A stretch of DNA of 64,000 bases, from positions 258,896 through 322,895 of the forward strand of contig CBDAUE010000002.1 in assembly GCA_965200595.1 (NCBI GenBank). Direction: 5' to 3'. Source of the DNA: Thermodesulfobacteriota bacterium. Its GTDB lineage: Bacteria > Desulfobacterota_D > UBA1144 > Nemesobacterales > Nemesobacteraceae. This document shows, piece by piece, positions 5,739-62,769 of this stretch. The translations under genes and the position numbers were made by a program. A model generated the notes under the pieces. It was given only the letters and a program-made list of their open reading frames with translations, ran no database searches and was not told the origin of the DNA. How positions within the stretch are numbered: position 1 is the stretch's first letter; every line of letters starts with the position of its first letter.

Positions 5739-5743
5739 GCCGC

Positions 5744-41285: not shown

Positions 41286-41464
41286 GGGTTTTGAGATTTT
41301 TGGAAGCACACAGCGGAAGGGAGGGGAGGGTATTCCGGCAATTTCAAAGCCGAGTTGTCTGATTCAGGCTGATTCAGACACAACTCAGCACCAATTTCAC
41401 CCAGGAATCGCTGTTCTGCCCGGGTGCGGACGCAGCAGTCCACACAAGGTTGAATTCCGTTTAA

Positions 41465-44412: not shown

Positions 44413-44506
44413 GCAGAATCGTAAAGCTGTCTTCAGGTAGAGGCTTCTTTTATTCGTGGTTGTAGATAACAGCAAAATTGCATTAAAATCTTTCTGAGAA
44501 ACACAG

Positions 44507-45802: not shown

Positions 45803-45881
45803 ATTTCTTCGGGGCGGCTTGGGGAGGTTTTCGCAAAATTGTCCGGTTCTGCAACGCTGTGGCAGGGGGCTTGAAAAACAT

Positions 45882-47558
45882 ATGCTTGTTGAACTCAGGC
45901 TTAAAAACTTCGCCATAATAGACGAAATTTCCATTAATTTCGGGACAAACCTGAACATAATTACCGGCGAGACTGGTGCCGGAAAATCCCTGATTGTTGA
46001 TGCTATAAACATAATTCTGGGTGACAGGTTTACCGCGGATCACGTTAAATCAGAAGACAGGCAGGCGTCGGTAGAAGCTCTTTTCGAAATTCCGGGGAAT
46101 TGTGTTATCGAAGAGAAGCTAAAGCGAATAGGTCTGGGAGACTCCGAAGGAGAGCTTGTCATAAAAAGGGTTTTTAACTCGGGTGGGAAAAACAGAGCTT
46201 ATATAAACGGTTCAATAGCAACGCTAGGTACTCTCTCTGATTTGACTGACGGACTTGTTAACATGTTCGGTCAGCACGAACACCAGAATCTTCTTAAAAA
46301 AAGCAACTATTTGAGTTATTTAGATAGTTATTCTCAACTTGAAAATGAAGTCTCTGAATACAAAATCTCCTACTCGGGACTCGTGCGCGTGGAGAATGAA
46401 CTTGAAGTTCTCAGAAAAAAAGAGCAGAAGAGGACGGAAGGGGAAGCTTATCTCAGATTCCAGCTAGAAGAGATAAAAAAAGTTTCCCCGATGCCGAATG
46501 AGGATTCAGACCTTGAAGCGGAGAGGGTTAGGCTTGAGAACTCAGAGAGATTCTCGTCTTCGCTCGGCAGTGCGACCGAGTTTATATATGAGGGAGAGAG
46601 TTCGGCCATGGGCTTTCTAAAACAGGCCCTTTTGGATCTTGAGAAGGTTTCAGACCTTGATTTATCTCTCGGAGAACTTCGGGACAGAATCTCGGCCCTA
46701 CTCATAGAGACCGAAGATGTTTTCTATGGTCTGAGTGAATTCGCAGAAAAAATAGAACACAATCCACTGAGACTTGAAGAAGTGCTATTGAGGCTTGAAG
46801 ATATAGCCAGACTTAAAAGAAAGCACGGAGATTCAATCGAGGAGATAATAAAAAAGCAGCAGCGCATCGAATCCGAACTTGAAGGTCTTGAAAATTCGGC
46901 TGGGATACTTGAGGAAATCGAGCGAAAAAGAGATTCCATGAAAAAGAAAATTTCCGCTGCCGCTTCTTCAATATCCGCCGGGAGAAAAGAGGGAGCCGTG
47001 CGGCTTGAAGGTCTTTTCTCCGAGCATGCCGAGTCAGTTGGGCTTAAAAACTCCCGTTTTGAGGTGGGATTTTCGGAAAAAGATCTTTCGGGAGACGGCA
47101 AAGACAGCGTGCAGTTTCTTTTCTCTGCTAACCCGGGTCAGGCTACGAGGCCTGTTAACAGGGTCGCTTCCGGTGGAGAGCTCTCAAGAATAATGCTCCT
47201 ACTTAAAAGCTTCGTTTCGACAGGTGACATCGGCTCGATCTTCATATTCGACGAAGTGGATGCCGGCATAGGGGGAATTGTGGCCGAGAGCATAGGGAGA
47301 AAAATAAAAAATCTCTCGGACCACAGTCAGGTAGTGTGCATAACGCATCTTCCTCAGGTTGCGAAATTTGCTGACACCCACCTGCTTGTGGTGAAGGGAT
47401 TTGGGGACGGCAAAACAGATGTTTCTGTTGATGTCCTCGGTGAAGAGGAAAGGGTGGAGGAAATTGCCAGGATGCTTGCAGGAGAGAGTGTTTCCCAAAA
47501 AACCTTTGAAGTTGCCCGCGAACAGATAGAAAAAGCCAGCCGCCGTGCTCTGTCATAA
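45882..47558 (+). CDS. recN: DNA repair protein RecN
   Basis: MLVELRLKNFAIIDEISINFGTNLNIITGETGAGKSLIVDAINIILG… N-terminal Walker A; long coiled coil; C-terminal LSGGE… and DEVDAGIGG. Confidence 0.95.
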   Translation: MLVELRLKNFAIIDEISINFGTNLNIITGETGAGKSLIVDAINIILGDRFTADHVKSEDRQASVEALFEIPGNCVIEEKLKRIGLGDSEGELVIKRVFNSGGKNRAYINGSIATLGTLSDLTDGLVNMFGQHEHQNLLKKSNYLSYLDSYSQLENEVSEYKISYSGLVRVENELEVLRKKEQKRTEGEAYLRFQLEEIKKVSPMPNEDSDLEAERVRLENSERFSSSLGSATEFIYEGESSAMGFLKQALLDLEKVSDLDLSLGELRDRISALLIETEDVFYGLSEFAEKIEHNPLRLEEVLLRLEDIARLKRKHGDSIEEIIKKQQRIESELEGLENSAGILEEIERKRDSMKKKISAAASSISAGRKEGAVRLEGLFSEHAESVGLKNSRFEVGFSEKDLSGDGKDSVQFLFSANPGQATRPVNRVASGGELSRIMLLLKSFVSTGDIGSIFIFDEVDAGIGGIVAESIGRKIKNLSDHSQVVCITHLPQVAKFADTHLLVVKGFGDGKTDVSVDVLGEEERVEEIARMLAGESVSQKTFEVAREQIEKASRRALS

Positions 47559-47873
47559 AACGACGTAGAAAAATCGGCCTGAATTCAAGCAAACTTATCT
47601 TTGATCAAAACCGTCAAACCTCTCCGCCGCTATAGCTTCAAACAAGGTAATCCCGTTTATAAGTCTTTTGATATCTGTTTCGCTACGGCGTTGCGGTGCT
47701 TGAGAGAGAGTCGGTTTTGCGTGACAGGTTGAATTGTGTTGTCTGCACGATGCAATCAATCGTGGAGCAACCAGTTTCAGCTCTTGGAATGGCCCACAAA
47801 ACCTTTGTTCAGGTGAGATCCGGAATCTGATCCCGCAAAATTCTTCTGCTTTGTTTCCCATGGGCAATGAGAG

Positions 47874-48440
47874 CTAGCTGATTATCTTCTTCGTTTCATA
47901 GGAACAGAAAACCACCGCAGTGAGAACCGTTGTCCAGAGTCCGTTTTTATCTCCCACCGCAGTCTGCGTTATGTTTCTGCTTTTCACCTTATGGCCGCTT
48001 ATCTCCCATATGTCTTTCTGTTCGTCGTAACTTTTATCTGGATCAAAGGGAGCATTAAGGGTGGTAGCGAGCATATAGGCGGCAAGATCTTCGGCGTATT
48101 CCCCTGCTAGGGTTTCTTTCTGTCCGTAGCTGTGGTGTTCAGAGATATACCCGTGGCGTGTTTTGTCTTTCGGGATCGCAAGGCCGGTAGACGCGGCGAT
48201 GAGCCTGCTGGGCTCGTTTGTGGAGTTCTCGCTCATTACCACAAACGCTATCTGCCCGGGGGAGAGCATGGTGAGTCCCTGCTTTCTGCTTACGAACTGA
48301 CAGCCCGGCGGGAATATGCTTGAGACCTTGACCAGATTGAATTCTGCAATCCGCGCATTTCTCAGAGCGAGTTCAAAACTTGATAGCTTTTCCCTGTGCT
48401 TGCCTACACCCTTGGTTACAAAAGCTTTTGTGGGAGTCAA
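47874..48440 (-). CDS. pdaD: Pyruvoyl-dependent arginine decarboxylase (PdaD)
   Basis: [45 protein letters not shown]… matches the PdaD family (FxTxGxGxHxxxLxSFExAL…NLVxVSSIxPP); 188 aa. Confidence 0.8.
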
Positions 48441-48512
48441 ACCACATCTCCTTATGAGTCTGCATTCAAGTTATATTTACGTGATGAGTTTGTCAAACAG
48501 GGGGAAAATGCG

Positions 48513-49349
48513 ATGAAATTCGGAGCACACGTCTCAATAGCCGGCGGGATTGAGAATGCACCGCTTAGGGCGAGGCAGGTTGGATGCGAATGTTTTCAGA
48601 TGTTCACCCGTTCGCCAAGAGGCGGCAGACCTCCGGAGCTTGAAGATCGACTAATCGAAGCTTTTCTTCTTAACTGTTCCGAGGTTTCCATAAGCGATTA
48701 TTACGTTCACACTCCTTATTTTATAAACCTGGCTTCAGGAAAGGATGACCTGAGAGAAAAGAGCGTGGATCTTGTAAGGGAAGAGCTTGAAAGGTCAAGT
48801 GCCTTGGGGGTGAAATACATGATGACACATATAGGAAGCGCAAAGGGACTGCGAAGAGAAGCCGCGATAGACAACGTGATTGAATCCGTTTTGAGGATTC
48901 TCTCAGAATACAGCGGCACAACCCAGCTTCTCCTTGAGAACACTGCCGGGCAGGGGGATACCATAGGTGCCAGTTTTGGGGAGATTTCTCTTATATTGAA
49001 TCGTGTTGCATATGATGATCTTGGAGTGTGTATGGATACCGCCCATATGTTTGCCTCCGGATACGATATAAGGACCCGCAAAGGCGTAGAGGAAATGGTA
49101 GGGCAAATAGGTGCCACTTTTCCGCCGGGAACCGTGAAACTCATTCACGCAAACGACTCCAAAGCCGAGTTTAATTCCAGTAAAGACCGCCACGAACATA
49201 TAGGAGAGGGAAAGATAGGGATTGACTGCTTTGGGGCGATAGTCGGAAATCCGTTTTTTGAGAATCTCGACATGATAGTGGAAATGCCTCCGCCCGAGGT
49301 GTCAAAAGACATTGAGTTTCTTAAGAAACTCAGGGACGGGAATACTTAA
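48513..49349 (+). CDS. nfo: Endonuclease IV (Nfo; AP endonuclease family 2)
   Basis: MKFGAHVSIAGGIENAPLRA…YYVHTPYFINLAS…LLENTAGQG…; start at the ATG at 48513 rather than the ORF-track start at 48396. Confidence 0.92.
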   Translation: MKFGAHVSIAGGIENAPLRARQVGCECFQMFTRSPRGGRPPELEDRLIEAFLLNCSEVSISDYYVHTPYFINLASGKDDLREKSVDLVREELERSSALGVKYMMTHIGSAKGLRREAAIDNVIESVLRILSEYSGTTQLLLENTAGQGDTIGASFGEISLILNRVAYDDLGVCMDTAHMFASGYDIRTRKGVEEMVGQIGATFPPGTVKLIHANDSKAEFNSSKDRHEHIGEGKIGIDCFGAIVGNPFFENLDMIVEMPPPEVSKDIEFLKKLRDGNT

Positions 49350-49351
49350 CC

Positions 49352-50071
49352 TCACGGTGAGAGCAGAAAACCGGTTTTTCCTGCCTTTGAACCGTTAACA
49401 TAGATGTTTTTTCTCTCGTCAATAGCGACCCTTCCATTTGCAATCAGATCATGGACCACAAAAGGAAACAGCTTCCATTCCCCCTGTTTTCTTATTTTTT
49501 CTTCTATGACTGCCGCATCCTCTGTGCCGAAACCCTCAATGGATATGTCGGCCGACTGGGCGATCACGGTTCCGAATCTTGTTTCAGGGTCGTTTTCAAG
49601 ATAGACAGTGCATCTTATGGTTTTTTCTTCATTCTCTAAAGCCTGGACCCATGCACTTTTTCCTCTCACAAGATAATCTTTGGCCGTGTTTCCGGGGTAG
49701 AGGTTTACGACCCTATTTGCAAATCTCTCGGTAAACAGGTGGCTAAGCCTTCTTCTGTATCCGGCCAGCACAACGATATCCGGTTCAGAAATCTCTTCAA
49801 TGAGGGAAATCACCGCCGAATCGTAAAGCACTCGTCCGCTCTCATCGGAAGGGGCTTTGCCAAGATCTGCAAAAAACTTCGCGGAACTTATGGAAGAGGT
49901 TTTGATCTCGAAATTTTTTGCTTTTGTAAGAACATGGGATTCGGGATCGTTTGAAAAAACATGTTCTATTACTCCATAGTTTTTGTTGTTGTTCTGCTTC
50001 AGTTCCATCTGTCTTGAGTATATTTTCTCGAAATTTGTTCCTCTGCCCGAGGCAAGAACGAAAATTTTCAT
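49352..50071 (-). CDS. purN: Phosphoribosylglycinamide formyltransferase (PurN-like) with a C-terminal extension
   Basis: MKIFVLASGRGTNFEKI…VVLAGY…; about 40 aa longer than E. coli PurN at the C-terminus. Confidence 0.8.
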   Translation of the reverse strand: MKIFVLASGRGTNFEKIYSRQMELKQNNNKNYGVIEHVFSNDPESHVLTKAKNFEIKTSSISSAKFFADLGKAPSDESGRVLYDSAVISLIEEISEPDIVVLAGYRRRLSHLFTERFANRVVNLYPGNTAKDYLVRGKSAWVQALENEEKTIRCTVYLENDPETRFGTVIAQSADISIEGFGTEDAAVIEEKIRKQGEWKLFPFVVHDLIANGRVAIDERKNIYVNGSKAGKTGFLLSP

Positions 50072-50128
50072 CGGCCTGTGGGTATTTGAGTAAATTGGCG
50101 TTATTTGCATTGCTCTTTTTATCGTTTA

Positions 50129-52067
50129 GTTTCCTGACTTCCGCACTTTTGTAACGTAAGTACCTGATATTACACAAGCGGGTTCCCGCTTGTACACTAC
50201 ACAAGAGCTTTTGAGATGTTTATTAGTCAGCCGGGAGTCCCCGGTCTGTTTTTACCAGGAATCCGCAAGCATGGTCTGCCTGCTGAGCACCGCTCCCACA
50301 GCGGAGTAAAGAGATCTCTGCTCCGTGGTGCCCTGAGAAGGTATCAGATACCTCTTATTGGTTCCCCTGTCCACCACCAGGGACGCCTCAACCCTGCCAA
50401 GTTCTGACAGTATGGCCCCTTCACTCATCGGTTCCTTTCCCCCATGATAACAGTTGTGCCTGAACCTCAGTATGCGAAGCAGTACGAATGCCGTAAAACA
50501 GATGGCCATGTGAGCCTCCACTCTCCTTTGAGTCCAGTGAAACACAGGCCTTACAGCCATTGTGTGCTTCATGACACGAAACCCTTCTTCTATCTTCCAT
50601 AACTCCCCGTAACAGTCGTATATCCTGGAGGCATCGTATTTGTCAGCAGGAAGACTGGTCCATACCCCGTGAGGACCGTCAAACTTCTCATCCCTCTCCA
50701 CCGCTTCGGTGTCTACAGACACGGCCCCCGCTTCCACCTTGATGAACCTGCCCCTGCGTCCATTGCCCTTTATCCCCCCTGCTATCCTTCTCTCAAGTTT
50801 CTTTAAAGCCTCTTCCCTGTCCTGCGAGTCTTTCCTCGCTCTCTTCTCGCAGTGACGCAGAACAAGCCTCCGTCCTCCCACTTCCATATCCCCAAGTCTT
50901 TTACCTTCCCCTATCTCTTTCCAGTCACTGTGTGAGAATACCTTCTCGCTGTCCTCCTCGGACATCCCCCGAAGCCTTGCCGCTACAACCCACTCATACT
51001 TATTGCGCTTTAAGACCTCAAGATTCTTTTTGCTCATCATCCCCGCATCCCCCACAAACACCACCCTTTCAAGCTTGATCCTCTTCTTTAACCCCTCTAT
51101 AGCAGGCTCAAGAGTGCTTACATCAGATGTGTTCCCCGGAAACAGCTCATAACCCAAGGGAAGTCCGTCTTTGGTCTGAAACAGTCCCAGCACCACCTGA
51201 ACCCTGTGAGGCTTCCCGTCCTTGCTCCACCCCTTCCTTCGAAGATCGTCTTGCGTGTCGCTTGCAAACGAAAGGGTTGTAACATCGAAAAACACAACTT
51301 CAACCTTTCCTTCAAAAAGTCCCATAACTTCTTTGCTAACAATGCTCTGAAGCTTCTCAGTACGCTTCTCGTCAACCTTGTCCATCATCCTGTACAGCTT
51401 GTCCACAGACACTTCCATTCCAAATTCCCGAGACAGCTTCGCATGGGCTCTTTTGCTCTTCCCAGGTGCCGCAAGACGCATAAGCACTGCCTGACGGAAC
51501 AGCCTGCCCGCCATCTTGTTTCTCGCTCCCCATATCCTGTCAAACCCAAGCTGACTGTACAGTTCTCCAAACACTTCATGAAACCCAAGATTGTAACGAG
51601 CCTCCTCTTCAAGCAATCGGGCATCAACTATGGGCAGGGGTTTGTCCTTCTGCTTTGTTCTTCTAAGCTTTATCAGCTTCTCAGCAGTGTCTTCAGCGGG
51701 GAACAGTGTGGGCTGTACGCTCTGTTCAAGACGGTTCTTCTCCACATGTGCAGCTCGCACAAGAGCGTCAAGAGGTTCTCCCGGGGGAGCGGAGCCCATG
51801 TGACGCACTACCTTCTGGCGTGGCTCACCCTTTGAGTTCCTGTAGGAATGCACTATCTGCACCGATATGTTGACTGTGGTCTGGCGTTTTAGCTGTTTTA
51901 CGAACATGTTGAATATTATAAGGGAAAGCGGAGGCGATGTCGAGCACAAAATTAGACTGAGCACTACAAAACGATTTGAAGCAGGCTGAAAATCAATATC
52001 AAGTAATTACAGGTACTTACGAAACTTCAAAGGCCCGACTTAAAAAAAACATGCTGAAGTCAGGAAA
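50129..52067 (-). mobile_element. IS1634-family insertion sequence
   Basis: Terminal IRs TTTCCTGACTTCCGCACTTTTGTAACGTAAGTACCTG (50130-50167) and the reverse-complement of CAGGTACTTACGAAACTTCA…GAAGTCAGGAAA (about 52005-52067); single 570-aa transposase. Confidence 0.8.
50252..51964 (-). CDS. IS1634-family DDE transposase
   Basis: 570 aa; N-terminal …VQIVHSYRNSKGEPRQKVVRHMGSA… matches the IS1634-family hallmark (…VESYR.GGKVRQRV..NLG…). Confidence 0.8.
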   Translation of the reverse strand: MLSLILCSTSPPLSLIIFNMFVKQLKRQTTVNISVQIVHSYRNSKGEPRQKVVRHMGSAPPGEPLDALVRAAHVEKNRLEQSVQPTLFPAEDTAEKLIKLRRTKQKDKPLPIVDARLLEEEARYNLGFHEVFGELYSQLGFDRIWGARNKMAGRLFRQAVLMRLAAPGKSKRAHAKLSREFGMEVSVDKLYRMMDKVDEKRTEKLQSIVSKEVMGLFEGKVEVVFFDVTTLSFASDTQDDLRRKGWSKDGKPHRVQVVLGLFQTKDGLPLGYELFPGNTSDVSTLEPAIEGLKKRIKLERVVFVGDAGMMSKKNLEVLKRNKYEWVVAARLRGMSEEDSEKVFSHSDWKEIGEGKRLGDMEVGGRRLVLRHCEKRARKDSQDREEALKKLERRIAGGIKGNGRRGRFIKVEAGAVSVDTEAVERDEKFDGPHGVWTSLPADKYDASRIYDCYGELWKIEEGFRVMKHTMAVRPVFHWTQRRVEAHMAICFTAFVLLRILRFRHNCYHGGKEPMSEGAILSELGRVEASLVVDRGTNKRYLIPSQGTTEQRSLYSAVGAVLSRQTMLADSW

Positions 52068-52090
52068 ATGCTGTCTAAAAAAGGGGACCA
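52064..52090 (+). repeat. 27-bp solo fragment identical to the outer tip of the IS3-family IRR seen at 8226-8252
   Basis: AAAATGCTGTCTAAAAAAGGGGACCACC at 52064-52090 matches the reverse-complement of 8236-8263; it supplies the last codons and stop of the truncated IS1182 transposase ORF. Confidence 0.8.
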
Positions 52091-53064
52091 CCGCTGTCGG
52101 CAAGCAGATTCTCAGCCTTGCCAAGCCTCTGCTCATTCTCCTTTAACTGCTCAAGCACGGGCTCTATCTCACGCTTGTCGTTTGTGTTCTGCGTTACATG
52201 CCTGGTCACTATAAGTCTGCTCTCCACATCCACTGCACCCTGAGCGTTGTATGCCTGCTCAAATCCCCCTCCCGAAGGCATTATCCGCGAATCTCCGTCC
52301 ACAAGATTCACCTGATCCTTATCCCTCGGTCTGCTCCCTCCTGCCTTCTTCCCGCTTTGCTTCTCATACTGTTCCCGCTTCTCTACCTTCTCCCCGTACA
52401 CTTCTGACTCCCGCTCATACCTGTGCTTTGCCCGCTCCTGTATCTCACGCTTCGCTTCCCGTCTCTGAAGTTCTTCGGGAACATTCATATCCTCTGGCAG
52501 TTTAGAGTTGTCAGCCTCCCGTGCAAGTCTCATCAGTTCCTTCACTTCTTTGTTCAGCTGCTTTTCTATCTTCCTTGCCCTCTTCCAGCTCAGTGCCTTG
52601 TGCCTGCTCGCATTAGCCTTTATCTTCGTGCCATCCACACTCACCGTGCCCATCCCTATCTGTCCCGCTATCTGCAGTATCTGTACAAACAATACCCCAA
52701 GCTCCTTGCCAAACCTCTTGCGGAACCTGTTTATGCTGTCATGATCCGGATTGCTGTTAGCGCATATATACCTGTACGCCACACTGTCATATGTTGCCTT
52801 CTCAAGCTTCCGGGAAGAGAATGTCCCCGTCGCGTATCCGTAGAACAGAAGAGCCACCTTCATTCCCGGATGATACGCTGCCGACCCCCTGCCCGAATAC
52901 GCTTCCGTCAGCCTTCTCAGATCCAGCTGCTCAACTATCTCCACCACAAACCGGGCAAGATGGTCTTCGGGCAGATACTCTTCTATTGTAGGCGGAAACA
53001 TCTGCGGCGTCTTGCGGTCTGCTGATACAAACCTCCGTCTCATTGTCTTCTCCTTCTCAGACAT
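52075..53064 (-). pseudogene. IS1182-family transposase, C-terminally truncated (ends at LLADSGG where LADAGY is expected)
   Basis: …LPEDHLARFVVEIVEQLDL…GRGSAAYHPGMKVALLFYGYATGTFSSRKLE…DGTKIKANASRHKALSWKRARKIEKQLNKEVKEL…DGDSRIMPSGGGFEQAYNAQGAVD…; 329 of about 460 aa. Confidence 0.75.
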
Positions 53065-53089
53065 CTTGATACCGTTGTTTTAACATTAA

Positions 53090-54082
53090 ATGACCGCTAA
53101 AGCCCGACAGACTCCTAGGCGGATTATTAAAGCTCGTTTCTGGTCAAGCGATAGCAAAACGCCGCAGGCCACTGTCAGTGCCTGTTTTTATTTGGATATC
53201 AAAAAGCATGGGGAGCAGTCGACCTTTGTGAAGGTTGCGCCTGGAAAGTTCTTCCTTCGGGGTGTTCAGCCTGTTGCTGTTTGCGATGCGAAGGAACCGG
53301 AACCAGAAAACGAAAGTGATCCAACCAGCCCGAAAAAAACGTATTCATTTCTGGATGCCGCAGAAAAAGTTCTGGATCACTTTGGCAACCGAAACTCCAT
53401 GCATTATCGGGATATTACCCACAAGGCTATTAATCAGGGCTGGTTGAAAACCTCAGGCAAGACTCCCGAAGCAACAATGAATGCTCAACTTATAACAGAA
53501 ATCAAGCGGACAAAAACCAGCAGGGTGCCCGGGCGGTTTGTGCGCAATTCTCGAGGGCATTACAGTCTCGTCAAATGGATGAAAACAGGCTTGGAGTCTC
53601 AAATTTCCAAACACAATCAGGAAATCCGTAAAAATCTGCTCTCTCAGTTGATGGGTATGAGTCCAGTTCAATTTGAGGAGCTGGTTGGACAGTTATTGGC
53701 TGAGATGGGCTTTGAAAGCATCGAGGTAACCAAAATCAGTCGTGACGGCGGTATGGATGTTCGGGGCACTTTGCTTATCAGTGATGCGGTCCGGATTAAA
53801 ATGGCTGTTCAAGCAAAACGCTGGAAAGCTAATATTCAAAGTCCGATCGTTCAACAGGTGCGCGGCAGTCTTGGCGCACATGAACAGGGGCTGATTATTA
53901 CGACCAGCAAATTCAGCACTGGCGCTAGAAAAGAAGCAAATCAGCCGGACAAAACTCCCGTGGGCCTCATGGACGGAGAACAGCTGGTCTCGCTCCTGAT
54001 GGAATACGATATAGGTGTCCGCCGCATATCACATGACCTTTTCGAGCTGAAGGAACTGCCGACAGAAAAGGAAAATATATAG
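53090..54082 (+). CDS. mrr: Mrr-like type IV restriction endonuclease (HARE-HTH/Mrr_N winged helix plus Mrr_cat PD-(D/E)xK domain), with an about 80-aa N-terminal extension of uncertain validity
   Basis: Mrr_N: …YSFLDAAEKVLDHFGNRNSMHYRDITHKAINQGWLKTSGKTPEATMNAQL…GRFVRNSRGHYSL; Mrr_cat: LSPVQFEELVGQLLAEMGFESIEVTKISRDGGMDVRGTL…KMAVQAKRWKANIQSPIVQQVRGSLGAHEQGLIITTSKFSTGARKEA…. Confidence 0.8.
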   Translation: MTAKARQTPRRIIKARFWSSDSKTPQATVSACFYLDIKKHGEQSTFVKVAPGKFFLRGVQPVAVCDAKEPEPENESDPTSPKKTYSFLDAAEKVLDHFGNRNSMHYRDITHKAINQGWLKTSGKTPEATMNAQLITEIKRTKTSRVPGRFVRNSRGHYSLVKWMKTGLESQISKHNQEIRKNLLSQLMGMSPVQFEELVGQLLAEMGFESIEVTKISRDGGMDVRGTLLISDAVRIKMAVQAKRWKANIQSPIVQQVRGSLGAHEQGLIITTSKFSTGARKEANQPDKTPVGLMDGEQLVSLLMEYDIGVRRISHDLFELKELPTEKENI

Positions 54083-55573
54083 ATGTCTTCATTTCTATCA
54101 TGGGTTGATCATGACTCGAAAGCCAGAGAGCGTACTCTTCGAATTCTTTCCCTTTTTCAGGAAAGGGAAAGCCGTGACGAACTTGGACTTGCTTCGGTGC
54201 GAGACAGCTTTGCAGATCAATTATTCCCCGGCACAAGTACGATCCAAACACGCCTTCGGTACATGCTCTTCGTACCATGGATTTACAATTCCTTAGAAAA
54301 GAAAAGCCTCCCTGCGCCAAGTTTTGCGAATCAGGCTGAAAAGCTTGAAAGAGACCTTGTTCAGCCTTTATATGGATTCAGATGAGGCTGGTGTATTTAG
54401 TAAAACTGCAGGAAAGGGGCTTAAACGGTTGCCCAGTTCTGTATACTGGGCAGGTCTCGGAGCGTGGAGAATACGCCGTACTCAATTCTCACAGGATGAA
54501 TACCATCGGCGCATCGATGAAACCTATAGTCGCAGGAATGACCTTAAGGCTCTTGAGAAAGATGCTAAATCAAGAGGCGATGACATAGACATTGAGCGGC
54601 GTAGCGCCATTTCAAACTGGCATCCAAGCCTGCCATAGCCACCGCAAGATTTTCCAGATAAGGCTGATCTTGATTTGTCCCGGGAGGAAGCCGAATTCAT
54701 TTGTGACTGTATACAGAGGGCTTACCCTAACAGTCTACTCTCTTTTCTGTCATTGAACTCTAAACCAGCTGAAACCAGTGCCCCATGGGAGCATCCCGAC
54801 TACGGCAGCTTTTCCGATGAACATAAAAAACTTCTGACACATGCCAGGCTCTTCTCCGAAGTGATGCACGGCACGGCGCTTTCGTATAACGTCCAACTCG
54901 CCAAGCTTCGAAAGGATGATGAGCTTGTCGAAAGGCATCAAAAAAGTTTCAACAATTGGGTGAAAATCCTTCCTTTAAAGGAAATTGAGGGTTGGCAGCT
55001 GACACAGCTCTGGGATTTGACCGTCGGTCATGGGTACACCATTACTCCACAAATGCGTTCCTTTGTTCAGTGCTGGGTCGATTATACACTCGAATATCCA
55101 GATCCAAACAACCTTCTCTACGATACTGATGCGCTGAATCTTATAAAAAGAAGAGAAATGAGACTTAAAGGCCCGCGTTCCCGTTTTAGAAATCAAAGAG
55201 CGCTAGAACAGTGGGGAGGATCTTCCGGTGTTCGGAAGAAACTAGACTACCGGTGGCCAAATATAAAAGTGCTTCTAGACGACCTTGATCAAGGTATGAA
55301 TCGGTACGAAAAATGCTGAATCCAAACTCCCGAAGCCTATATACTTCCGCATTGACTCCTCCACCGGGAATGATCTTTGACGAAGCTGTTGCAACAACTT
55401 TTTCAATGGATCCCGCTTTACTACTTGAGGCTCCTGTTTATCTGGCGCTAATGGCGGCAGATGGCCAGTCAGATTCAGACCCGTTATTTGTACTTGAAGC
55501 AATCCGGAGATACTCAAAGAAAATCACTGTTTATGTACGTGGTTTTAAGTTCGAAACGCGACATTTGAAGTAA
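54083..55573 (+). pseudogene. Disrupted gene of unrecognised family, translationally coupled to mrr (TAGATG): two frameshifts (about 54330-54385 and about 55313), one in-frame TAG (54636-54638), and 3' truncation by the IS30 IR relic
   Basis: Four consecutive ORF-track fragments (frames 2, 0, 0, 2) read through as one about 497-aa protein; no Walker A motif; an Rx6H motif (RRSAISNWH) sits just before the amber codon; the last codons (…YVRGFKFETRHLK*) are encoded by IS30 IR sequence. Confidence 0.6.
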
Positions 55574-55580
55574 ACTAACA
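55537..55580 (+). repeat. Solo IS30-family terminal IR relic, copy 2 of the 45-bp repeat
   Basis: CGTGGTTTTAAGTTCGAAACGCGACATTTGAAGTAAACTAA versus 41087-41131 (4 substitutions, 1 indel); no transposase follows. Confidence 0.6.
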
Positions 55581-55681
55581 TGAACAGGATTTAGCAAGCT
55601 TGGCTTTAATCGTGACTTTGCTGTTCTCCTCGTTTGTTATAAATTGCTAACAGAGCATCATCCTATCATCGTGGAGGTAGC

Positions 55682-55834
55682 ATGACTGCAAAGATATGGG
55701 TACAAGTAGGTGGTTTTATAGCCGTTTTAGGTTTTCTCTGGAAGCTATCTCAGGATGTGGGTTATCTCCGCGAGAGAATGGTGAAGTTTGAAGCAGCAGT
55801 TAAAGGCTTTCTTAAAGGAAAGCAAAACGGATAA
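55682..55834 (+). CDS. Small (50-aa) single-TM hypothetical protein
   Basis: MTAKIWVQVGGFIAVLGFLWKLSQDVGYLRERMVKFEAAVKGFLKGKQNG; strong SD GGAGG 7 nt upstream of the ATG; below the ORF-track length cut-off. Confidence 0.45.
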   Translation: MTAKIWVQVGGFIAVLGFLWKLSQDVGYLRERMVKFEAAVKGFLKGKQNG

Positions 55835-55952
55835 TGTAATAAAAGATTTCTCAACCTTACATCGCATACCTGTAAGAGCGAATTCTCAGAAGTTGTGCTG
55901 AGCTCAAGGCAACACTTTTAATATGCTTATGGAATCTACATAATCGCTTGAA

Positions 55953-56046
55953 TATGTTGATTTTCTTCCTGTTTTTCGACATGTTTGCTTAACGTGTCGA
56001 TTTTTCTCCTTTTTTCGACACATTCTCCCAATAATGTTGATTTCAT
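55953..56046. repeat. Array of 2.5 related 28-bp hairpin units (7-bp arms, 14-nt pyrimidine-rich loop) immediately 3' of fic
   Basis: ATGTTGATTTTCTTCCTGTTTTTCGACAT (55953-55981), GTGTCGATTTTTCTCCTTTTTTCGACAC (55993-56020; perfect GTGTCGA/TCGACAC arms), partial AATGTTGATTTCATC (56032-56046). Confidence 0.5.
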
Positions 56047-56050
56047 CATG

Positions 56051-57130
56051 CTATCCCTTCAGCACCTGCAATAGCCGCTCATTGATGTAATATACCTCCC
56101 GGCCTGCTTTCACAGGGTGCAGCAGGTCAGCTTCAGCAAAGGCCTTTAGATAGGTCGAGGCGGTCTGTCGCTTGGCCAACCCCCGTTGCTCCAAAAAGCG
56201 GATTCTGCAGTAGGGCTGCTCAAAGATCAGCTTGATCAGTTCCTTGGAATAGGCCTTCGGGGTTTTTGCACGGGAAATCTCTTCTGTCTCTTCCATCAGA
56301 TCCGCAATCTGCTGGATCAGTTCTCGGGTCTCCCTTGCCGTCTCCTTGATGCCCCGTAGCATGAACAGAATCCAGTCCTCCCAAGCCTGCTCTCTGGTAA
56401 CCCGGCGCAACCCTTCGTAATAGTCCCGCTTGTGGCGGACAATGTAGCGGCTCAAACAAAGCACCGGCAGTTCCAGCAAGCCTCGCTCAACCAGATACAG
56501 AATATTCATAATACGCCCGGTTCGACCGTTGCCATCGCTGAACGGATGTATGGTCTCAAACTGGTAGCGCATAACCGGCAGTCGGATTAGGGGATCGAGA
56601 CCGCTTTGCTCGTCGTGGATGAACTGCTCCAGGTTGGCGAGCAACCCCTGCAGCCGCTCCTCACCCTCGGGAGGGGTATAGATGCTTCTGCCTCCACTGC
56701 CGGCCAGTCTGGTGCCAGGCAGCCGCCGGATGCCCATTTGCTTGCCCTTGATCATCTCCGCCAGATCGATAAACAGGTTGGTGCTCAGGGGGCGCTCCCG
56801 CAGCTTTTCGAATCCGCCCCACAAGGCCTGCTGATAGCGCAGGACTTCCCTAGTTTGGGGCGAGGCAGAAGATGCATCGGTGGCGGCTCGGTACAGCTCA
56901 TCCTTGGTGGCCAAGATGTTTTCGATCTCCGAGGAAAGGCGCGCCTCCTGCAGGACCACCGCTTTGATCAGGATATTCTGGTTGGGGATAATATTTCCCG
57001 CGCCCTTAAGTTCCGCCAGCTCGCGGGAGGCGGCCACAGCCTGCCTGAGCACCTGTACTGTCTCTAACGGCACGCCATGCGGCGGCAATGACGGGAGACT
57101 GTTGTAGGGGCGGTCTGAATCGAGACTCAT
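56051..57130 (-). CDS. fic: Fic/DOC-family protein (class II, N-terminal inhibitory helix) with a C-terminal winged-HTH
   Basis: Fic motif HPFSDGNGRTGR; upstream inhibitory motif SSEIEN (S-xxx-E-N); 359 aa; the locally GC-rich composition is a by-eye impression. Confidence 0.88.
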   Translation of the reverse strand: MSLDSDRPYNSLPSLPPHGVPLETVQVLRQAVAASRELAELKGAGNIIPNQNILIKAVVLQEARLSSEIENILATKDELYRAATDASSASPQTREVLRYQQALWGGFEKLRERPLSTNLFIDLAEMIKGKQMGIRRLPGTRLAGSGGRSIYTPPEGEERLQGLLANLEQFIHDEQSGLDPLIRLPVMRYQFETIHPFSDGNGRTGRIMNILYLVERGLLELPVLCLSRYIVRHKRDYYEGLRRVTREQAWEDWILFMLRGIKETARETRELIQQIADLMEETEEISRAKTPKAYSKELIKLIFEQPYCRIRFLEQRGLAKRQTASTYLKAFAEADLLHPVKAGREVYYINERLLQVLKG

Positions 57131-57349
57131 GTCTCCTCCTGACCGGTTTTTATGTCCAGTTCCGAAGACATCAGCTTCGGAGCGGCTTTCAGTTATACTA
57201 TGGATACACTACCGGATTCACCCGAGCAAGAAATGGAAGTGACTGTTTAGAAAAGAAACCGGACGATTAATCTGCTCCGTGGTTTTATGTTCCGGAATCG
57301 GACAGTTTAATTTGAAAATTCCAAGTACAGACTTGACGAAAAGTTCCCT

Positions 57350-57715
57350 ATGAATTCAAGTACAGTTGATCTTGACGAGATACTCAATGACTTCAGCAAA
57401 GTAGCCGAGGAGGCATCCCAAGAGAATTTTCCGGTTCCGCATAAAAGAGCGATAGAAAATGCAGAGTCTTTGATAAAAAGAACCTATGAGATCTTCCCCC
57501 GTCGTTTTGAAGTTTATCCGGACCAGGACGGAGCAATTGCCATTGATATCTACAACGGAAAAGGGAAATCAGTTCTTTTGTTATGTGAATCTAAAGGGGA
57601 AATCCTATTTCTAGCTGATGTGAATGGTGAGAGTTGCCGCAAACGCTATTCGCAATCAGGAATAAAGAAGCTTCCTGACGATTTCATAAAAAGGGCTTTG
57701 AGGCAGCTGCTATAA
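57350..57715 (+). CDS. Hypothetical protein (121 aa), divergent from fic
   Basis: ORF with no recognisable motifs; 220-bp divergent intergenic region shared with fic. Confidence 0.4.
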   Translation: MNSSTVDLDEILNDFSKVAEEASQENFPVPHKRAIENAESLIKRTYEIFPRRFEVYPDQDGAIAIDIYNGKGKSVLLLCESKGEILFLADVNGESCRKRYSQSGIKKLPDDFIKRALRQLL

Positions 57716-57860
57716 CCCTGTCCTCTGGCACAGATTTTTGAATATTTTTCTTAAGACCTCGGAAAAGCAATGGCTTGGCCGTCGCATATTTTCAAAAAGC
57801 TGTTAAGAGTGTACGGCAGAAGATTCCCTGTAACCTTATTAAGCTTGGGGATTTAATGAA

Positions 57861-58448
57861 GTGAAAACTATTGTAATTGCCACTAAAAACAAGGGAAAGC
57901 TAAGAGAGTTCGGATCAATTCTCGCCGGTGCCTACGACGAGATACTGTCTCTGGCGGATTTTGATCAGATTGCCGACATACAGGAAACAGGCCTTTCTTT
58001 TCGGGAAAACGCTCTTATAAAGGCAAAGACAACCTGCGATTTTCTGGGCATGGATTCTATCGGGGATGACTCGGGTCTGGTCGTGGATGCTCTGGGCGGA
58101 GCCCCGGGAATTTATTCGGCAAGATACTCGGGTGAGGGTGCCTCGGATGATAGCAACAACAAAAAACTTCTCTTTGAACTTAAAGGGGAGGAAAACAGAG
58201 ATGCCAAATTTGTGTGCTGCATAGCTTTGGTGCTTGCCGACGGAACGCAGGAGTTTTTTGAAGGCGAGTGCAGCGGGCAGATTATCCGGGAGAAAAGAGG
58301 CGAGGGCGGTTTTGGTTACGACCCGGTTTTTTATGTTCCCGAGTACCAGAAAACCATGGCTGAGCTCGGCCCCCGCATAAAAAACAGGATAAGCCACAGA
58401 GCCGTTGCCTCCCAGAAGCTTCTGTCGTATTTTTCGGATTCCGGATAA
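57861..58448 (+). CDS. rdgB: Non-canonical purine NTP pyrophosphatase (RdgB/HAM1 family)
   Basis: MKTIVIATKNKGKLREF…GFGYDPVF…; 195 aa. Confidence 0.92.
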   Translation: MKTIVIATKNKGKLREFGSILAGAYDEILSLADFDQIADIQETGLSFRENALIKAKTTCDFLGMDSIGDDSGLVVDALGGAPGIYSARYSGEGASDDSNNKKLLFELKGEENRDAKFVCCIALVLADGTQEFFEGECSGQIIREKRGEGGFGYDPVFYVPEYQKTMAELGPRIKNRISHRAVASQKLLSYFSDSG

Positions 58449-58602
58449 GCGCGGCTTTTGGTTCTGACCGCAATTTGCGATGTAAATCGAAGCGGCGGGC
58501 CGCGATAATTTCGTTTTTAATTGTAAGCTGCCCTCCAATTGAATATATTTAGACTCCGTCCTTTGTTTTTTACTGTTGTTCTAACCTGGCGGGGGGTTCT
58601 GC

Positions 58603-60216
58603 TTGAAAAGCGCGAAGTTTATTTTTGTCACCGGCGGAGTTATGTCTTCTCTTGGAAAGGGGATATCCGCTTCCTCAATAGGCTTTCTTCTTGAATGCTG
58701 CGGTCTTCGGGTCACGCTTCAGAAGCTTGATCCCTACATAAACGTCGATCCGGGCACGATGAACCCGTTTGAGCACGGGGAGGTTTTTGTTACCGATGAC
58801 GGTGCGGAAACGGATCTTGATCTCGGTCACTACGAAAGATTCACCAACGCCAAGCTCGGCAAGAAAAACAATCTTACAAGCGGCAAAATCTACGATTCCG
58901 TTATTTCCAAGGAAAGGGAAGGCAAATTTCTCGGAAAAACAGTCCAGGTGATTCCTCACATAACCGATGAGATAAAGTCGCGCGTGCTTGCCCTTAAAGA
59001 CGACAACGATGTCATTATAGTGGAGATCGGCGGCACCGTGGGAGATATTGAGAGTCTTCCTTTTCTTGAGGCTGTAAGGCAGCTGAGATCGGATCTCGGA
59101 AAACAGAACACCCTGTTCATACATCTCACCTATGTTCCCTTTGTCGCCGCGGCAGGAGAACTTAAGACAAAGCCAACGCAGCACAGCGTTAAGGAGCTTC
59201 TGCAGATAGGAATTCAGCCCGACATACTGCTTTGCCGCACCGAGGAAAAGTCTCTGCCAGAAGATGTCAAAAGAAAAATAGCCCTTTTCTGCAACATTGA
59301 GCAGAAGGCGGTGATCACGGCCAAGGACGTTGAGCACATATACGAAGTTCCGCTTACGTACAAAAAAGAGGGATTGGCCGAGATAATTGTTGAATATCTC
59401 GGCATGTGGACAAAAAAACCCGACATGGGCGAGTGGGAAGGGCTTGTTCGCAGAATAAAGAATATGAAAAAAACCGTGCGCATAGCCGTTGTCGGAAAAT
59501 ATGTTTCGCACGGAGATTCATACAAAAGCCTCCACGAGGCACTGTACCACGGCGGACTGGCCCATGATTCAAGCGTTGAAATAAAATACGTGAATTCAGA
59601 GCAGATGGACGGCATGTCCCCGGACAGCTACTTTTCCGATGTTCACGGCATACTTGTTCCCGGAGGGTTCGGGAAGAGAGGGATTGACGGCAAGGTCGAC
59701 GCCACCAGATACGCAAGGGAAAAGCAGATTCCGTTTTTTGGAATCTGCTACGGCATGCAGCTTGCCGTTGTTGAGTTTTCAAGAAACGTCTGCGGCATGG
59801 ATGACGCGGATACGACCGAGAACAACGGCGATACCAAAAACCCCGTTATAGACATAATGGAATCCCAAAAAAGCGTGAGCGAAAAGGGCGGAACAATGAG
59901 ACTCGGGGCCTATCCGTGCGTAGTAAAACCCGAAACACTTGCCGGCAGCATCTACGGAACTTCGCATATCTCCGAAAGACACAGACACCGGTTTGAAGTG
60001 AACAACAGCTACAGGGAAATGTTTGAGTCAAACGGAATGGTTCTTTGCGGTCTGTCGCCGGATGGAAATCTGGTTGAAATAATGGAACTTAAAGACCATC
60101 CTTGGTTTGTCGGCTGTCAGTTCCATCCAGAATTCAAATCAAAGCCCTTAAGCGCCCACCCGCTTTTCAGGGATTTCATAAGGGGGGCGCTTCGCTACAA
60201 GGATTCTCTTGGCTGA
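58603..60216 (+). CDS. pyrG: CTP synthase (PyrG)
   Basis: [21 protein letters not shown]…; C-terminal GATase ([10 protein letters not shown]…HRHRFEVN); 537 aa. Confidence 0.97.
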
Positions 60217-62241
60217 TTGAATCTCGAATCGCTCCGTTTGATGAACCTTCCTGCTATAAACGAACTTATTGCCTACAGAAAAAGAAGGGAGCCAGCCTTC
60301 GGGGTGGTTCTCTCTGTCCATCCTGAAAAACTCTCTGTTTTCTCAGAAGACGGAAAGCGCTACTCGGTTGAACCGAAAAAAATCGCGCTGATTACCGGAA
60401 TAACTGTTTCTGAGAGTCTTACAGACTCTGAGAAAAAACTCGAAATGAGAAAACAAAGAAGAGAACTTGAAGAGAAAAAAGACTCTGTTGACGTTGAGAT
60501 GCTGTGGGAGTGTGTTGTGGAAGAGCAGGAGACCGTGAGCTTTGAGGAGATGCTGGATCTGTATTCGGGGGCGGAGCAGATTTCTTCGCAGCACAGGCTT
60601 TTGCTTTTCTGGGCAGTGGATAAAAACACTGTTTATTTTACAAGAAGTGAAAACGGCTATCTGGTGCGCTCCCGCGAAGATGTCTCCAAAACGATTCGTG
60701 CCGTTGAACTCAGAGAGCAAAGAGAGCAAAAAGCGCAGGCGGCCGCAAGCTGGGTGCGTTCCGTCATAAACGGCAAAGTTCCCGCGGCGGTTGATGAGAC
60801 CCACAGCGAGTTCCTTGAACTGATCGAGCGGTACGTCATTGACCTTGACGGCTATGAGCGGGCTAAGGAGGCCAAGAAGTTTCTCTATGAAGCGGGACTT
60901 AAGGAAGTGGAATCGGGGGTTGAATTTCTTATAAGAACGGGTTTTTGGAGCAAAGACGATGATCCGGAATCAAAAAAAATCGCTTTTCACTTCACACGCT
61001 CGCCAAGAGAGCTTGAAGAGTCAGAAGCTTCTTTGAGCGCCGGGGAAAACTTCAAAGGCCTTGCCGAGAGAACGGAACTTGAAGTTTTTTCAGTTGACAG
61101 CGAGACCACGCAGGACATCGACGACGCCATCTCTTTTGAAATGCACGGGGATCGGTTCACCCTTGGAGTCCACATCTCAAATGTCGCCCATGCTGTAAGC
61201 AGAGGAAGTTTTCTTGATCAGGGAGCCCTTAAGCGTGCCGAGACGGTTTATTTCCCGGAAGGGCGTGTGGATATGTTTCCTCGGGACCTTGTGGGCAGAA
61301 AACTCAGCCTGACTTCAGGCGATCTACGGCCCGCTCTTTCTCTTTTTGCCACTTTTAACAGAAAAGACCTGACCCTGATCGATTATCGCTTTGAGGCTAC
61401 GGTCATAAGGGTTTCCCAAAATCTTACCTACGCAGAAGCAACCAGGATGTTTGGCAGTACGCAATGGGGAGAGCATCTGACATCTCTTACTGATTCACTC
61501 AGGCAGCGCAGAGTCAGCAAAGGGGCTTTTTTGGTTCAGCTTCCGGAACTCAAAATCAGGATCGGAGAACTGAACGGGATATCGGTCGCCAAGGACTATA
61601 TGGATTCCCCTGCCCACAATGTGGTTTCTGAATGCATGATACTTATGAACCGGCTTTCGGGAGATTTTTTCGATAAGAACGAAATTCCGGCACTGTTTCG
61701 CTCTCAGACCCAGGAGATTGATTCCGAAGCCAGAGAGCTTGACCCGAAAGACATTCTTTTTCCCGTAAAGGTAATAAAGCACTTAAAACCCTCTTTTGTC
61801 AGCTCGGCCGCTCATATCCACAAGTCTCTGGGGGTTGACTGCTATGTTCAGATGACCTCTCCCATCAGAAGATACACGGACCTTCTCATGCAACGCCAGA
61901 TTATATCCTGGCTTGCAGAACAGAAGATCTGCTACATGGAAAATGAGCTTGAAGACACAAACACGCGGGTGAGTCTTGCCACCAGGGAGATAAAAAACGC
62001 CCAGAGAAGCAGACACAGGTACTGGCTTATCCGCTATCTTCTGGAAAATGACATAAAGGGGGCAAGAGGCTACGTAAGTTCTAGGGGATATAATGGGTTT
62101 AACGTTTATATCCCGGAGTTTCTGATCGAACTTGCGCTTTCTAACGCAGGCGGCAGGGCTTTTGATATAGGAAGCGAACTCTCCTTATCCATCTGGGGGA
62201 TGGATCCTCTGAGAAGAAGGATACGCGTGAGTCCGGATTAA
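60217..62241 (+). CDS. rnr: RNB-domain exoribonuclease (RNase R/RNase II family)
   Basis: RNB catalytic motif VFSVDSETTQDIDDAISFE; 674 aa; the start abuts the pyrG stop. Confidence 0.8.
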   Translation: MNLESLRLMNLPAINELIAYRKRREPAFGVVLSVHPEKLSVFSEDGKRYSVEPKKIALITGITVSESLTDSEKKLEMRKQRRELEEKKDSVDVEMLWECVVEEQETVSFEEMLDLYSGAEQISSQHRLLLFWAVDKNTVYFTRSENGYLVRSREDVSKTIRAVELREQREQKAQAAASWVRSVINGKVPAAVDETHSEFLELIERYVIDLDGYERAKEAKKFLYEAGLKEVESGVEFLIRTGFWSKDDDPESKKIAFHFTRSPRELEESEASLSAGENFKGLAERTELEVFSVDSETTQDIDDAISFEMHGDRFTLGVHISNVAHAVSRGSFLDQGALKRAETVYFPEGRVDMFPRDLVGRKLSLTSGDLRPALSLFATFNRKDLTLIDYRFEATVIRVSQNLTYAEATRMFGSTQWGEHLTSLTDSLRQRRVSKGAFLVQLPELKIRIGELNGISVAKDYMDSPAHNVVSECMILMNRLSGDFFDKNEIPALFRSQTQEIDSEARELDPKDILFPVKVIKHLKPSFVSSAAHIHKSLGVDCYVQMTSPIRRYTDLLMQRQIISWLAEQKICYMENELEDTNTRVSLATREIKNAQRSRHRYWLIRYLLENDIKGARGYVSSRGYNGFNVYIPEFLIELALSNAGGRAFDIGSELSLSIWGMDPLRRRIRVSPD

Positions 62242-62424
62242 CTTTCGGTGCCCAGCACCTAGGTTCAGACAGGCAAGGTTGATGTCGGAACGGGAAAGAT
62301 TACTCTTTCAGTCCTCTTCCTGACATTCAGTACAATTTCTTGGAATCAGTTCTTAGAAGTATTACAAGTGTCTGTAGCTGCTGGATATAGCTTTACAGAA
62401 GACTGTTTGCTTACAGTAAGGTTA

Positions 62425-62637
62425 AAAAACGTTAAGGTTTGAGAGTGCAGCAATAATTGTAATGGCAGCTACCATTAAGCCTCCCAGCCTGATAAGCATT
62501 CTCTGTTCAAGCTCTTTAATATCTCGCTTTATATCCAGTCGAAGTTGCTCAATGTCTTGCTTTGTGGCCAGTTCAAGCTTTTTAATATCTCGTCGAACTT
62601 CTTCAATATCTCGCTTTGTGGCCAGATTGGACTCAAT
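62425..62637 (-). pseudogene. Start-less DUF1640/XhlA-like coiled-coil plus C-terminal TM small ORF (71 open codons between stops; no ATG/GTG/TTG)
   Basis: Minus-strand translation IESNLATKRDIEEVRRDIKKLELATKQDIEQLRLDIKRDIKELEQRMLIRLGGLMVAAITIIAALSNLNVF*; the heptad repeats LATK.DI..L..DIK.L correspond to the about 60-bp tandem DNA repeat at about 62505-62625. Confidence 0.45.
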
Positions 62638-62769
62638 TCAAGAATGATAAGCCCAATCCACAAAGCTTGCCGAATGAAGAATCCAGCGTCTTCTGTCGGC
62701 AAGGTCTCTATACAGATGTGCTGAATTCAGGATGTCGGAGCGGGAAGGGGAAGGGGTGGGATCGCTTTT

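Follow-up and report, generated by a model that had tools for sequence, protein, structure and literature searches.

Background

The gene for transfer-messenger RNA (tmRNA), ssrA, is a well-known integration site, and islands and prophages located at this gene have been described (Islander; PMC11915505). Other known systems that are relevant here are capsid-forming phage-inducible chromosomal islands (cf-PICI) and small prophages, type IV restriction endonucleases of the Mrr family with HARE-HTH domains, the three-gene defence system Azaca, the single-gene defence system SoFic with the class II Fic AMP-transferase of Shewanella oneidensis, and inversions mediated by insertion sequences (IS) in IS-expanded genomes. 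Counterparts of these systems, many of them damaged, were encountered in a stretch of about 7.7 kb that lies between the core genes purN and rdgB in a DNA segment of 64,000 nt. This segment is called the window below, and all coordinates are positions in it unless a contig is named. From its RdgB protein, the genome was assigned to Candidatus Dadabacteria, a lineage that several records file under Thermodesulfobacteriota.

In an initial annotation, the stretch from 50129 to 57715 had been described as a decayed mobile or defence-type island inserted between purN and rdgB. For the present analysis, open reading frames (ORFs) were mapped, Pfam, NCBIfam, PADLOC, and PHROG scans were performed, and relatives were compared as loci labelled L001 to L090. 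All elements listed in the initial annotation were found at, or a few bases from, the positions given there. Damage was detected in mrr, zacA, zacB, and the partner gene of a small ORF designated orf121; together with nested IS elements and a foreign SoFic gene, it bears out the decayed state of the region. That the region consists of foreign, mobile or defence DNA decaying at a recombination hotspot is therefore supported, but its origin has to be described differently. The interval from 50130 to 57860 is probably the rdgB-proximal remnant of a variable island located between ssrA and rdgB, which would have been moved beside purN by an inversion between copies of an IS1634 element. All components are of known kinds; the locus adds a further case of a familiar phenomenon, from a phylum that has been little studied, and is not a new kind of system.

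A variable region between ssrA and rdgB

The right flank of the stretch is formed by the core gene rdgB (57861..58448, plus strand; Pfam Ham1p_like), which is followed in the window by pyrG and an RNase II/R gene. In 15 related loci, rdgB is 80-84% identical and the order rdgB-pyrG-rnr is kept downstream in all 15. Upstream of rdgB, the relatives share an alr-dtd-smpB-ssrA block, and in eight of the eight loci scanned for tRNA genes this block stops exactly at the 3' end of the tmRNA gene. The DNA inserted between the tmRNA 3' end and rdgB varies from 0.1 to 8.5 kb. The shortest insert, about 110 bp in L009, contains no gene, and L011 and L016 align across the whole 10 kb upstream of rdgB. Longer inserts harbor one unidentified ORF of 185 aa (L003, 0.6 kb), one STAS-like ORF of 119 aa (L002, 0.8 kb), two unidentified ORFs (L008, 1.5 kb), genes for a DUF2335 protein, an orf121 homologue and a 134-aa partner (L012, 2.4 kb), a Schlafen/AlbA_2 protein gene with IS fragments (L013, 5.2 kb), an MmeI-type IIG restriction-modification gene with IS30, IS256 and a portal fragment (L014, 8.1 kb), or a portal fragment and the gene of a putative surface protein of 1829 aa (L015, 8.5 kb).

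Two of these inserts showed additional details. The MmeI-type IIG enzyme of L014 comprises 958 aa and is encoded at 4118-6994 between the IS30 and IS256 elements (PADLOC E 7.5e-299). The 1829-aa ORF of L015 (3924-9413, minus strand), which may specify a repetitive surface or adhesin-like protein, is located beside a truncated phage portal gene, and 14 nt of the tmRNA 3' end are repeated at 3207-3220 of the same locus.

As in the islands described at tmRNA genes, the variable DNA of the relatives begins exactly at the tmRNA 3' end, and its cargo differs from genome to genome. The hotspot is real, but it is anchored at the tmRNA gene and not at purN. Repeated insertion and deletion at one hotspot, as assumed initially, is reflected in the nested IS elements of the window and in the variable inserts of the relatives; only the position has to be changed from purN-rdgB to ssrA-rdgB. 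In the scans of the window, the sole Rfam match between 49 and 59 kb, RsaOG, was at chance level (26.5 bits versus 50, E = 1) and was rejected.

The edges of the island could be defined by comparison. On the left, a contig that is otherwise 100% identical (L084) parts from the window at 50132, and the repeat of the IS1634 element starts at 50130, so that the left boundary proposed initially (50129) was close to correct. The right boundary at 57715 was set too early, since homology to the relatives begins at about 57840-57860 in blastn comparisons. In 15 relatives, the genes in between are not part of the core synteny, the sole exception being orf121, which is found in one of them. The damaged state of the genes is documented twice. 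Contig L001, assembled independently, differs from the window over 53093-64000 at only one of 10,908 bases, and the pieces of zacA are the same in it; the damage is therefore not an error of one assembly.

Composition was less informative than synteny. Deviations in tetranucleotide usage were significant over the IS elements only (z 2.6-3.9) and not over mrr or the Azaca genes, and composition alone could therefore not have delimited the island. The compositional deviation expected initially was found in the Fic gene (GC 0.572; GC at third codon positions, GC3, 0.708), but mrr and Azaca did not show it at a significant level. For comparison, GC3 of the flanking core genes ranges from 0.45 to 0.58.

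The purN junction

The left flank is a gene for a purN-like formyltransferase (49352..50110, minus strand; Pfam Formyl_trans_N). Its product scored 86.8 bits with the PurN model TIGR00639, which is below the cutoff of 150.1. A total of 264 homologues was found, and those with a taxon name belong to metagenome-assembled genomes (MAGs) of Dadabacteria or Thermodesulfobacteriota; a metagenome scan with purN yielded only one locus of 2 kb. In two complete relatives, the order purN-cdsA-ybeY is kept, with cdsA upstream of purN, and the distance from purN to rdgB is 203 and 218 kb, respectively, with both genes on the same strand. The window has them on opposite strands, with 7.75 kb in between.

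Contig L084 is especially instructive for this junction. It originates from run SRR33960553, which belongs to the same series as the run that gave L001, is 100% identical to the window from 43186 to 50132, and then runs into cdsA. The uninterrupted site of L084 reads TATCGTTTAGTTT|TTATGCGATT, and the window diverges exactly at this point into the left repeat of IS1634. Since the ancestral order is purN-cdsA and the empty site is present in L084, the adjacency of purN to the island must be secondary, caused either by a rearrangement or by a mis-join at IS1634. An island inserted between purN and rdgB, as annotated initially, does not agree with these data, because ssrA is the neighbor of rdgB and cdsA the neighbor of purN in the relatives.

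The IS1634-family element at the junction (50130..52067, minus strand) is complete. It is bordered by inverted repeats of 21 nt (50130-50150 and 52047-52067), which are 86% complementary, and its transposase gene extends from 50252 to 51907, or to 51964 if an upstream GTG is used (NF033559, E 1.6e-102, 344 bits versus a cutoff of 100). The sequence to the left of the element corresponds to the empty purN|cdsA site of L084 and the sequence to the right to the end of an IS3 element; related genomes do not have these two sequences next to each other, and a target-site duplication was sought at them without success. For non-contiguous flanks and a missing duplication, an inversion between IS1634 copies is the best explanation.

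Copies that could have served as partners are available. From protein cluster membership (at least 90% identity), the copy number of the transposase was taken as 16, distributed over three contigs of the same assembly (590,756, 491,545, and 450,856 bp). Full-length proteins of 551 or 570 aa account for at least five members, and fragments of 106-459 aa for the remainder; the full-length copies differ from that of the window at no more than two of 570 residues. Exact-protein look-ups with the transposase, performed for both start codons and for the cluster representative, returned no records of other copies, and a plasmid search with the element gave no match. With a genome size of about 1.5 Mb, an expansion to this extent suggests that IS elements are still active and decaying. 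It also shows that not every element of the region is a fragment of a different IS family, as had been stated: IS1634 is intact and present in many copies. The situation thus shares with IS-mediated inversions in IS-expanded genomes the intact IS, the non-contiguous flanks, the lack of a duplication, and the many near-identical copies. The difference is that the inversion is deduced here from one junction.

An integrative element with orf121 at the tmRNA gene

A link between the island of the window and the ssrA-rdgB site is provided by orf121 (57350..57715, plus strand; 121 aa), which is the relic of an accessory module that is carried next to the tmRNA gene by a small integrative phage or satellite. 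Pfam, NCBIfam, PADLOC, and PHROGs contain no matching family, and only seven homologues were detected among 5.8 billion proteins. The structure, predicted with confidence (pLDDT 82), did not match any entry of the PDB and resembled only two unnamed viral proteins, with TM values of 0.71 and 0.63.

On three contigs (L086, L087, and L085, the last of which is identical with L090), an orf121 homologue and a partner gene of about 130-136 codons adjoin genes for a portal protein, an S78 protease, a capsid protein, TerL, and AlpA. The module is located immediately 3' of the tmRNA gene on these contigs, and L086 additionally contains an HNH gene. In the window, the partner is reduced to about 20 codons (57716..57800, plus strand), the rest of this gene and the phage body being deleted, and nothing else of the module is left before rdgB. 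The remnant was recognized by a blastn alignment of 57445-57798 to positions 9228-9578 of L012; it reads SEKQWLGRRIFS in frame 1, where L012 has EEEQLGRRIFSE. The partner did not match any PHROG. The ORF annotated initially as an orphan gene of 121 aa is therefore present, but it is a member of a small family borne by phages or satellites.

One of the contigs, L090 (1-11172; IMG/VR UViG 3300002734_000009), contains a complete integrative element of about 10.3 kb at the ssrA-rdgB site. The 3' end of the tmRNA gene occupies positions 1-253, and rdgB starts at 10768. In between, an 84-aa gene, the orf121 homologue, its partner, and genes for portal, S78 protease, capsid, TerL, AlpA, and a connector are followed on the rdgB side by a P4-type (tyrosine) integrase gene (9263-10420, minus strand). 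A 14-nt repeat of the tmRNA end, CGGCGCCTCCACCA, is found at 10565-10578 and constitutes attR. With its tyrosine integrase and its direct repeat of 14 nt, the element corresponds to the islands described at tmRNA genes. No tail genes are visible in it, so that it has the appearance of a capsid-forming satellite or of a very small dadabacterial prophage. We take it to resemble cf-PICI: integrase, AlpA, TerL, capsid, S78 protease, portal, and connector are all encoded, whereas the window retains nothing of such an element except orf121 and the beginning of the partner gene.

Capsid-encoding elements of about 10 kb with the orf121 gene pair have so far been seen only in Dadabacteria. The module formed by orf121 and its partner is the only item of the locus with some potential novelty. 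One may speculate that the two genes form an accessory module not described before, such as a pair acting in defence or anti-defence or one that is toxin-antitoxin-like, but we regard this as rather unlikely.

Nested insertion sequences and truncation of mrr

The left part of the island consists of IS elements inserted into each other: IS1634 is located in an IS3 element, the IS3 element in IS1182, and IS1182 in mrr. Of the IS3-family element, a terminal fragment of 31 nt remains (52068..52098, plus strand), which is cut by IS1634 on one side and abuts the truncated IS1182 on the other. The fragment could be assigned because 52065-52098 agrees at 33 of 34 bases (E 1.5e-13) with the minus strand of 8230-8263, where an IS3-family element ends; an rve ORF (8351-8806) precedes this end by about 90-120 nt.

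The IS1182-family element (52099..53105, minus strand) has retained its 5' two-thirds. The transposase ORF, 52075-53064, obtains its final few codons from the IS3 fragment; it contains DUF772 and a partial DDE_Tnp_1 domain (Pfam) and covers positions 3-320 of the 488 positions of NF033551, and with 244.6 bits versus a cutoff of 270 it is incomplete. A truncated IS1182 transposase capped by an IS3 end is exactly what the initial annotation had listed. Contig L001 breaks at 53093, which is consistent with a repeat boundary.

Immediately to the right, a gene for a Mrr-type (type IV) restriction endonuclease was identified (53090..54082, plus strand), and homology to other Mrr proteins starts near 53105. 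The protein shows two HARE-HTH stretches and Mrr_cat (E 1.5e-26) in Pfam searches and matches PDC-S02 and mREase_IV of PADLOC; the catalytic motif, D223...Q-A-K, agrees with the pattern D...(Q/E)xK. The domains are thus those of the Mrr-family HARE-HTH endonucleases, but the first 20 residues or so are replaced by sequence from the junction with IS1182. In BLASTP comparisons, residues 6-325 align to residues 21-335 of a protein of 338 aa with 69% identity, an offset of about 15 residues. The gene is not full length: its homologues have about 15-20 additional N-terminal residues, and just upstream in the window there are stop codons. From the offset and these stop codons it is concluded that insertion of IS1182 removed about 20 codons of mrr and, with them, the initial helix of the first HARE-HTH domain. 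For the shortened gene, an in-frame ATG is available at 53090.

Remnants of an Azaca system

The mrr gene is followed by a pseudogene (54083..55319, plus strand), which had been taken for the partner of mrr. It is indeed a pseudogene, but PADLOC (ZacA) and Pfam (DUF6361) searches identified it as zacA of an Azaca system. A partnership with mrr was rejected for this reason, and also because the closest homologue of mrr is a stand-alone gene in an unrelated context. Pieces corresponding to positions 1-96, 97-176, and 190-395 of the 396 positions of the ZacA profile are distributed over two reading frames, owing to one frameshift near 54370-54385, and an in-frame TAG is present at 54636-54638. 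Downstream, a remnant of zacB, the gene of a PLD nuclease, was detected (55313..55537, plus strand), which matches positions 1-76 of 586 of the PADLOC model ZacB (E 3.6e-25). Here, homology is cut at an IS30 inverted repeat, and the ORF reads on through this repeat to 55573. For zacC, no PADLOC match was obtained in the island.

In Azaca, ZacA (DUF6361), ZacB (PLD nuclease), and ZacC (SF2 helicase) are all needed for DNA cleavage, and T4 DNA is preferred (bioRxiv 10.1101/2025.07.10.664194). The window has the canonical order zacA-zacB with overlapping stop and start codons, but zacA carries a frameshift and a stop codon, zacB ends after about 76 residues, and zacC is absent. Since all three proteins are required, the Azaca system of this region is non-functional.

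The repeat that cuts zacB is a solo terminal inverted repeat of the IS30 family (55538..55559, plus strand), as recognized initially. It matches both repeats of the IS30 element of L014 (2418-2439 and 3476-3498, flanking the transposase gene) at 22 of 23 and 21 of 22 bases. Two copies of the motif are present in the window, compared with none in 100 shuffled sequences; an IS30 transposase gene was not detected in the window. Another solo IS30-type repeat, CGTGGTTTCAAGTTTGAAACGC, is located at 41089-41110, just past the gatB gene, with an IS1182-like element about 160 bp away.

The packing of mrr and the Azaca genes is tight. The stop codon of mrr directly abuts the start of zacA (54082-54083), and the stop codon of zacA overlaps the start of zacB (55313-55319). 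Modified DNA is a target of both Mrr and Azaca. The arrangement may indicate co-transfer as one cassette, although the closest homologue of mrr is solitary.

A SoFic gene and its surroundings

A gene for a SoFic-type class II Fic protein of 359 aa (56051..57130, minus strand) is intact and contains the domains Fic_N, Fic, and SoFic-like_C. The PADLOC model SoFic is matched at positions 9-359 of 361 (E 3.2e-114). The active-site motif HxFx(D/E)GNGRxxR is represented by HPFSDGNGRTGR at residue 195 and the inhibitory motif (S/T)xxxE(G/N) by SSEIEN at residue 66. The same three domains and both motifs are found in the SoFic single-gene defence system and in the class II Fic AMP-transferase of S. 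oneidensis. In contrast to these, the window gene remains under the equivalog cutoff of NCBIfam NF046030 (461.5 versus 550 bits), and its anti-phage role is a predicted one; it is a relative of NF046030 and not a certified equivalog. By its GC and GC3 values, the gene is compositionally foreign, in agreement with the GC-rich class II Fic gene noted initially. It is apparently the only complete defence-type gene in the region. A simple scan for promoter-like sites gave none upstream of it.

Between the solo IS30 repeat and the SoFic gene, two small features are located, which had both been predicted correctly. One is orf50 (55682..55834, plus strand), specifying a predicted membrane protein of 50 aa with a hydrophobic N-terminal half; a Shine-Dalgarno sequence, GGAGG, is located 5 nt upstream of its ATG. 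No match to orf50 was obtained in Pfam, PHROG, or PADLOC, and among the loci examined it is present only in the identical contig L001. The other is a terminator-like hairpin with a T-run (55976..56000, plus strand), which was detected in a terminator scan and forms part of a larger imperfect palindrome at about 55929-56048. The fold around the hairpin has a predicted energy of -46.4 kcal/mol and a z-score of -2.75.

Proposed history

The order of events is inferred from the nesting of the elements and from the relatives, and the following sequence probably accounts for the region. The ssrA-rdgB site serves as attachment site for capsid-encoding elements of about 10 kb with an integrase, and gathers defence genes and IS elements. 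The original cargo would have included a gene of the Mrr type, zacABC of Azaca, SoFic, and, as the end module of a phage, orf121 with its partner. IS1182 would then have severed the 5' end of mrr, an IS3 element would have entered IS1182, and IS1634 would have entered the IS3 element. A deletion associated with IS30 could have taken most of zacB and all of zacC, zacA would have gained its frameshift and stop codon, and the phage body would have been deleted along with attR. Last, two inverted copies of IS1634, one in the island and one at the purN|cdsA site, would have recombined. The resulting inversion of about 0.2 Mb would have parted the remnant from smpB-ssrA and set it beside purN.

Alternative explanations

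Several observations weigh against this history. Neither a tmRNA gene or fragment of it nor the 14-nt att sequence is present in the window, and no integrase is encoded by the island ORFs; unlike the islands described at tmRNA genes, the remnant thus lacks adjacency to ssrA, an integrase, and both att sites, and its descent from an ssrA island rests on rdgB synteny and orf121. The composition of mrr and zacA is host-like, and these genes are thus not obviously recent imports. The reciprocal junction, in which cdsA would be followed by IS1634, the rest of IS3 and IS1182, and eventually ssrA, was not observed. Furthermore, an uninterrupted purN|cdsA allele is present in the same series of runs; the rearranged form is therefore not fixed, and with this allele a mis-join by the assembler, through the repeated IS, is conceivable. 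In such an assembly chimera, a simple IS1634 insertion at purN|cdsA and a second copy in the ssrA-rdgB island would have been joined through the repeat of about 1.9 kb; the content of the island would be unchanged, and its adjacency to purN would be an artefact. More than 99% identity among the IS1634 copies, of which at least five are full length, with fragments on three contigs, would favor such a join, as would the contig of run SRR33960553 crossing the empty site at 100% identity and the absence of a target duplication. True recombination between IS copies, however, would likewise leave no duplication, and the source contigs of 450-590 kb contain many internal IS copies, which suggests a long-read assembly, and long reads normally span a repeat of 1.9 kb. 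A chimera is therefore considered unlikely. Far less probable still, to the point of being hardly tenable, is a single island that was inserted between previously adjacent purN and rdgB genes and decayed in place. The two genes do flank the island in the window, and its left edge does coincide with an IS end, but within 10 kb upstream of rdgB the 15 relatives contain nothing of window positions 1 to 57.8 kb except orf121 in one of them. In addition, rdgB follows ssrA in the relatives, purN follows cdsA in the relatives as well as in the contig of identical sequence, and about 0.2 Mb separate the two genes, on the same strand, in two complete genomes.

A different question is whether the remnant of the ssrA-rdgB island, moved by inversion or not, could still act in defence. 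In that case, only Azaca would be dead, SoFic would be functional, and an outward promoter of the IS, together with the ATG at the junction with IS1182, might allow expression of the shortened Mrr. Full-length SoFic with its catalytic and inhibitory motifs would fit such a locus, as would a Mrr protein that retains the second HARE-HTH domain, Mrr_cat, the D...QAK motif, and the in-frame ATG at 53090. On the other hand, the simple scan revealed no promoter-like site upstream of SoFic, and without the initial helix of its first HARE-HTH domain, Mrr may be destabilised. Based on these sequence features, a locus that still works is conceivable, although we would not call it probable.

Consequences for annotation

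The identification of the remnant as part of an ssrA-rdgB island corrects the map of the locus, since the recombination hotspot of the lineage is the tmRNA gene and not purN. What looked like an insertion between two housekeeping genes is probably a rearrangement joint at an expanded IS. In the MAGs of this uncultured lineage, Azaca of this region should be called a pseudogene, and SoFic should be annotated as its sole intact defence-type gene. The contig join at IS1634 deserves a flag for checking. The ssrA-rdgB interval of Dadabacteria appears to be a place to seek defence systems as well as small integrative phages or satellites.

Other insertion sequences in the window

Two further groups of IS elements were noticed outside the island. 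Between 7510 and 9108, two partial IS3-family copies are arranged as an inverted pair, with arms of 211 bp that are 92% identical (7510-7718 and 8898-9108). The rve-domain ORF mentioned above is encoded within this pair on the minus strand, and it is the right terminus of this element that recurs at 52065-52098. A full-length IS1182/IS5-like element is located at 41267-43213. It has perfect inverted repeats of 17 nt and encodes a transposase of 487 aa with DUF772 and DDE_Tnp_1 domains (41493-42956, minus strand), and it is not related in sequence to the IS1182 fragment of 52.1-53.1 kb. Contig L084 ends within this element, at 43186, as expected at a repeat.

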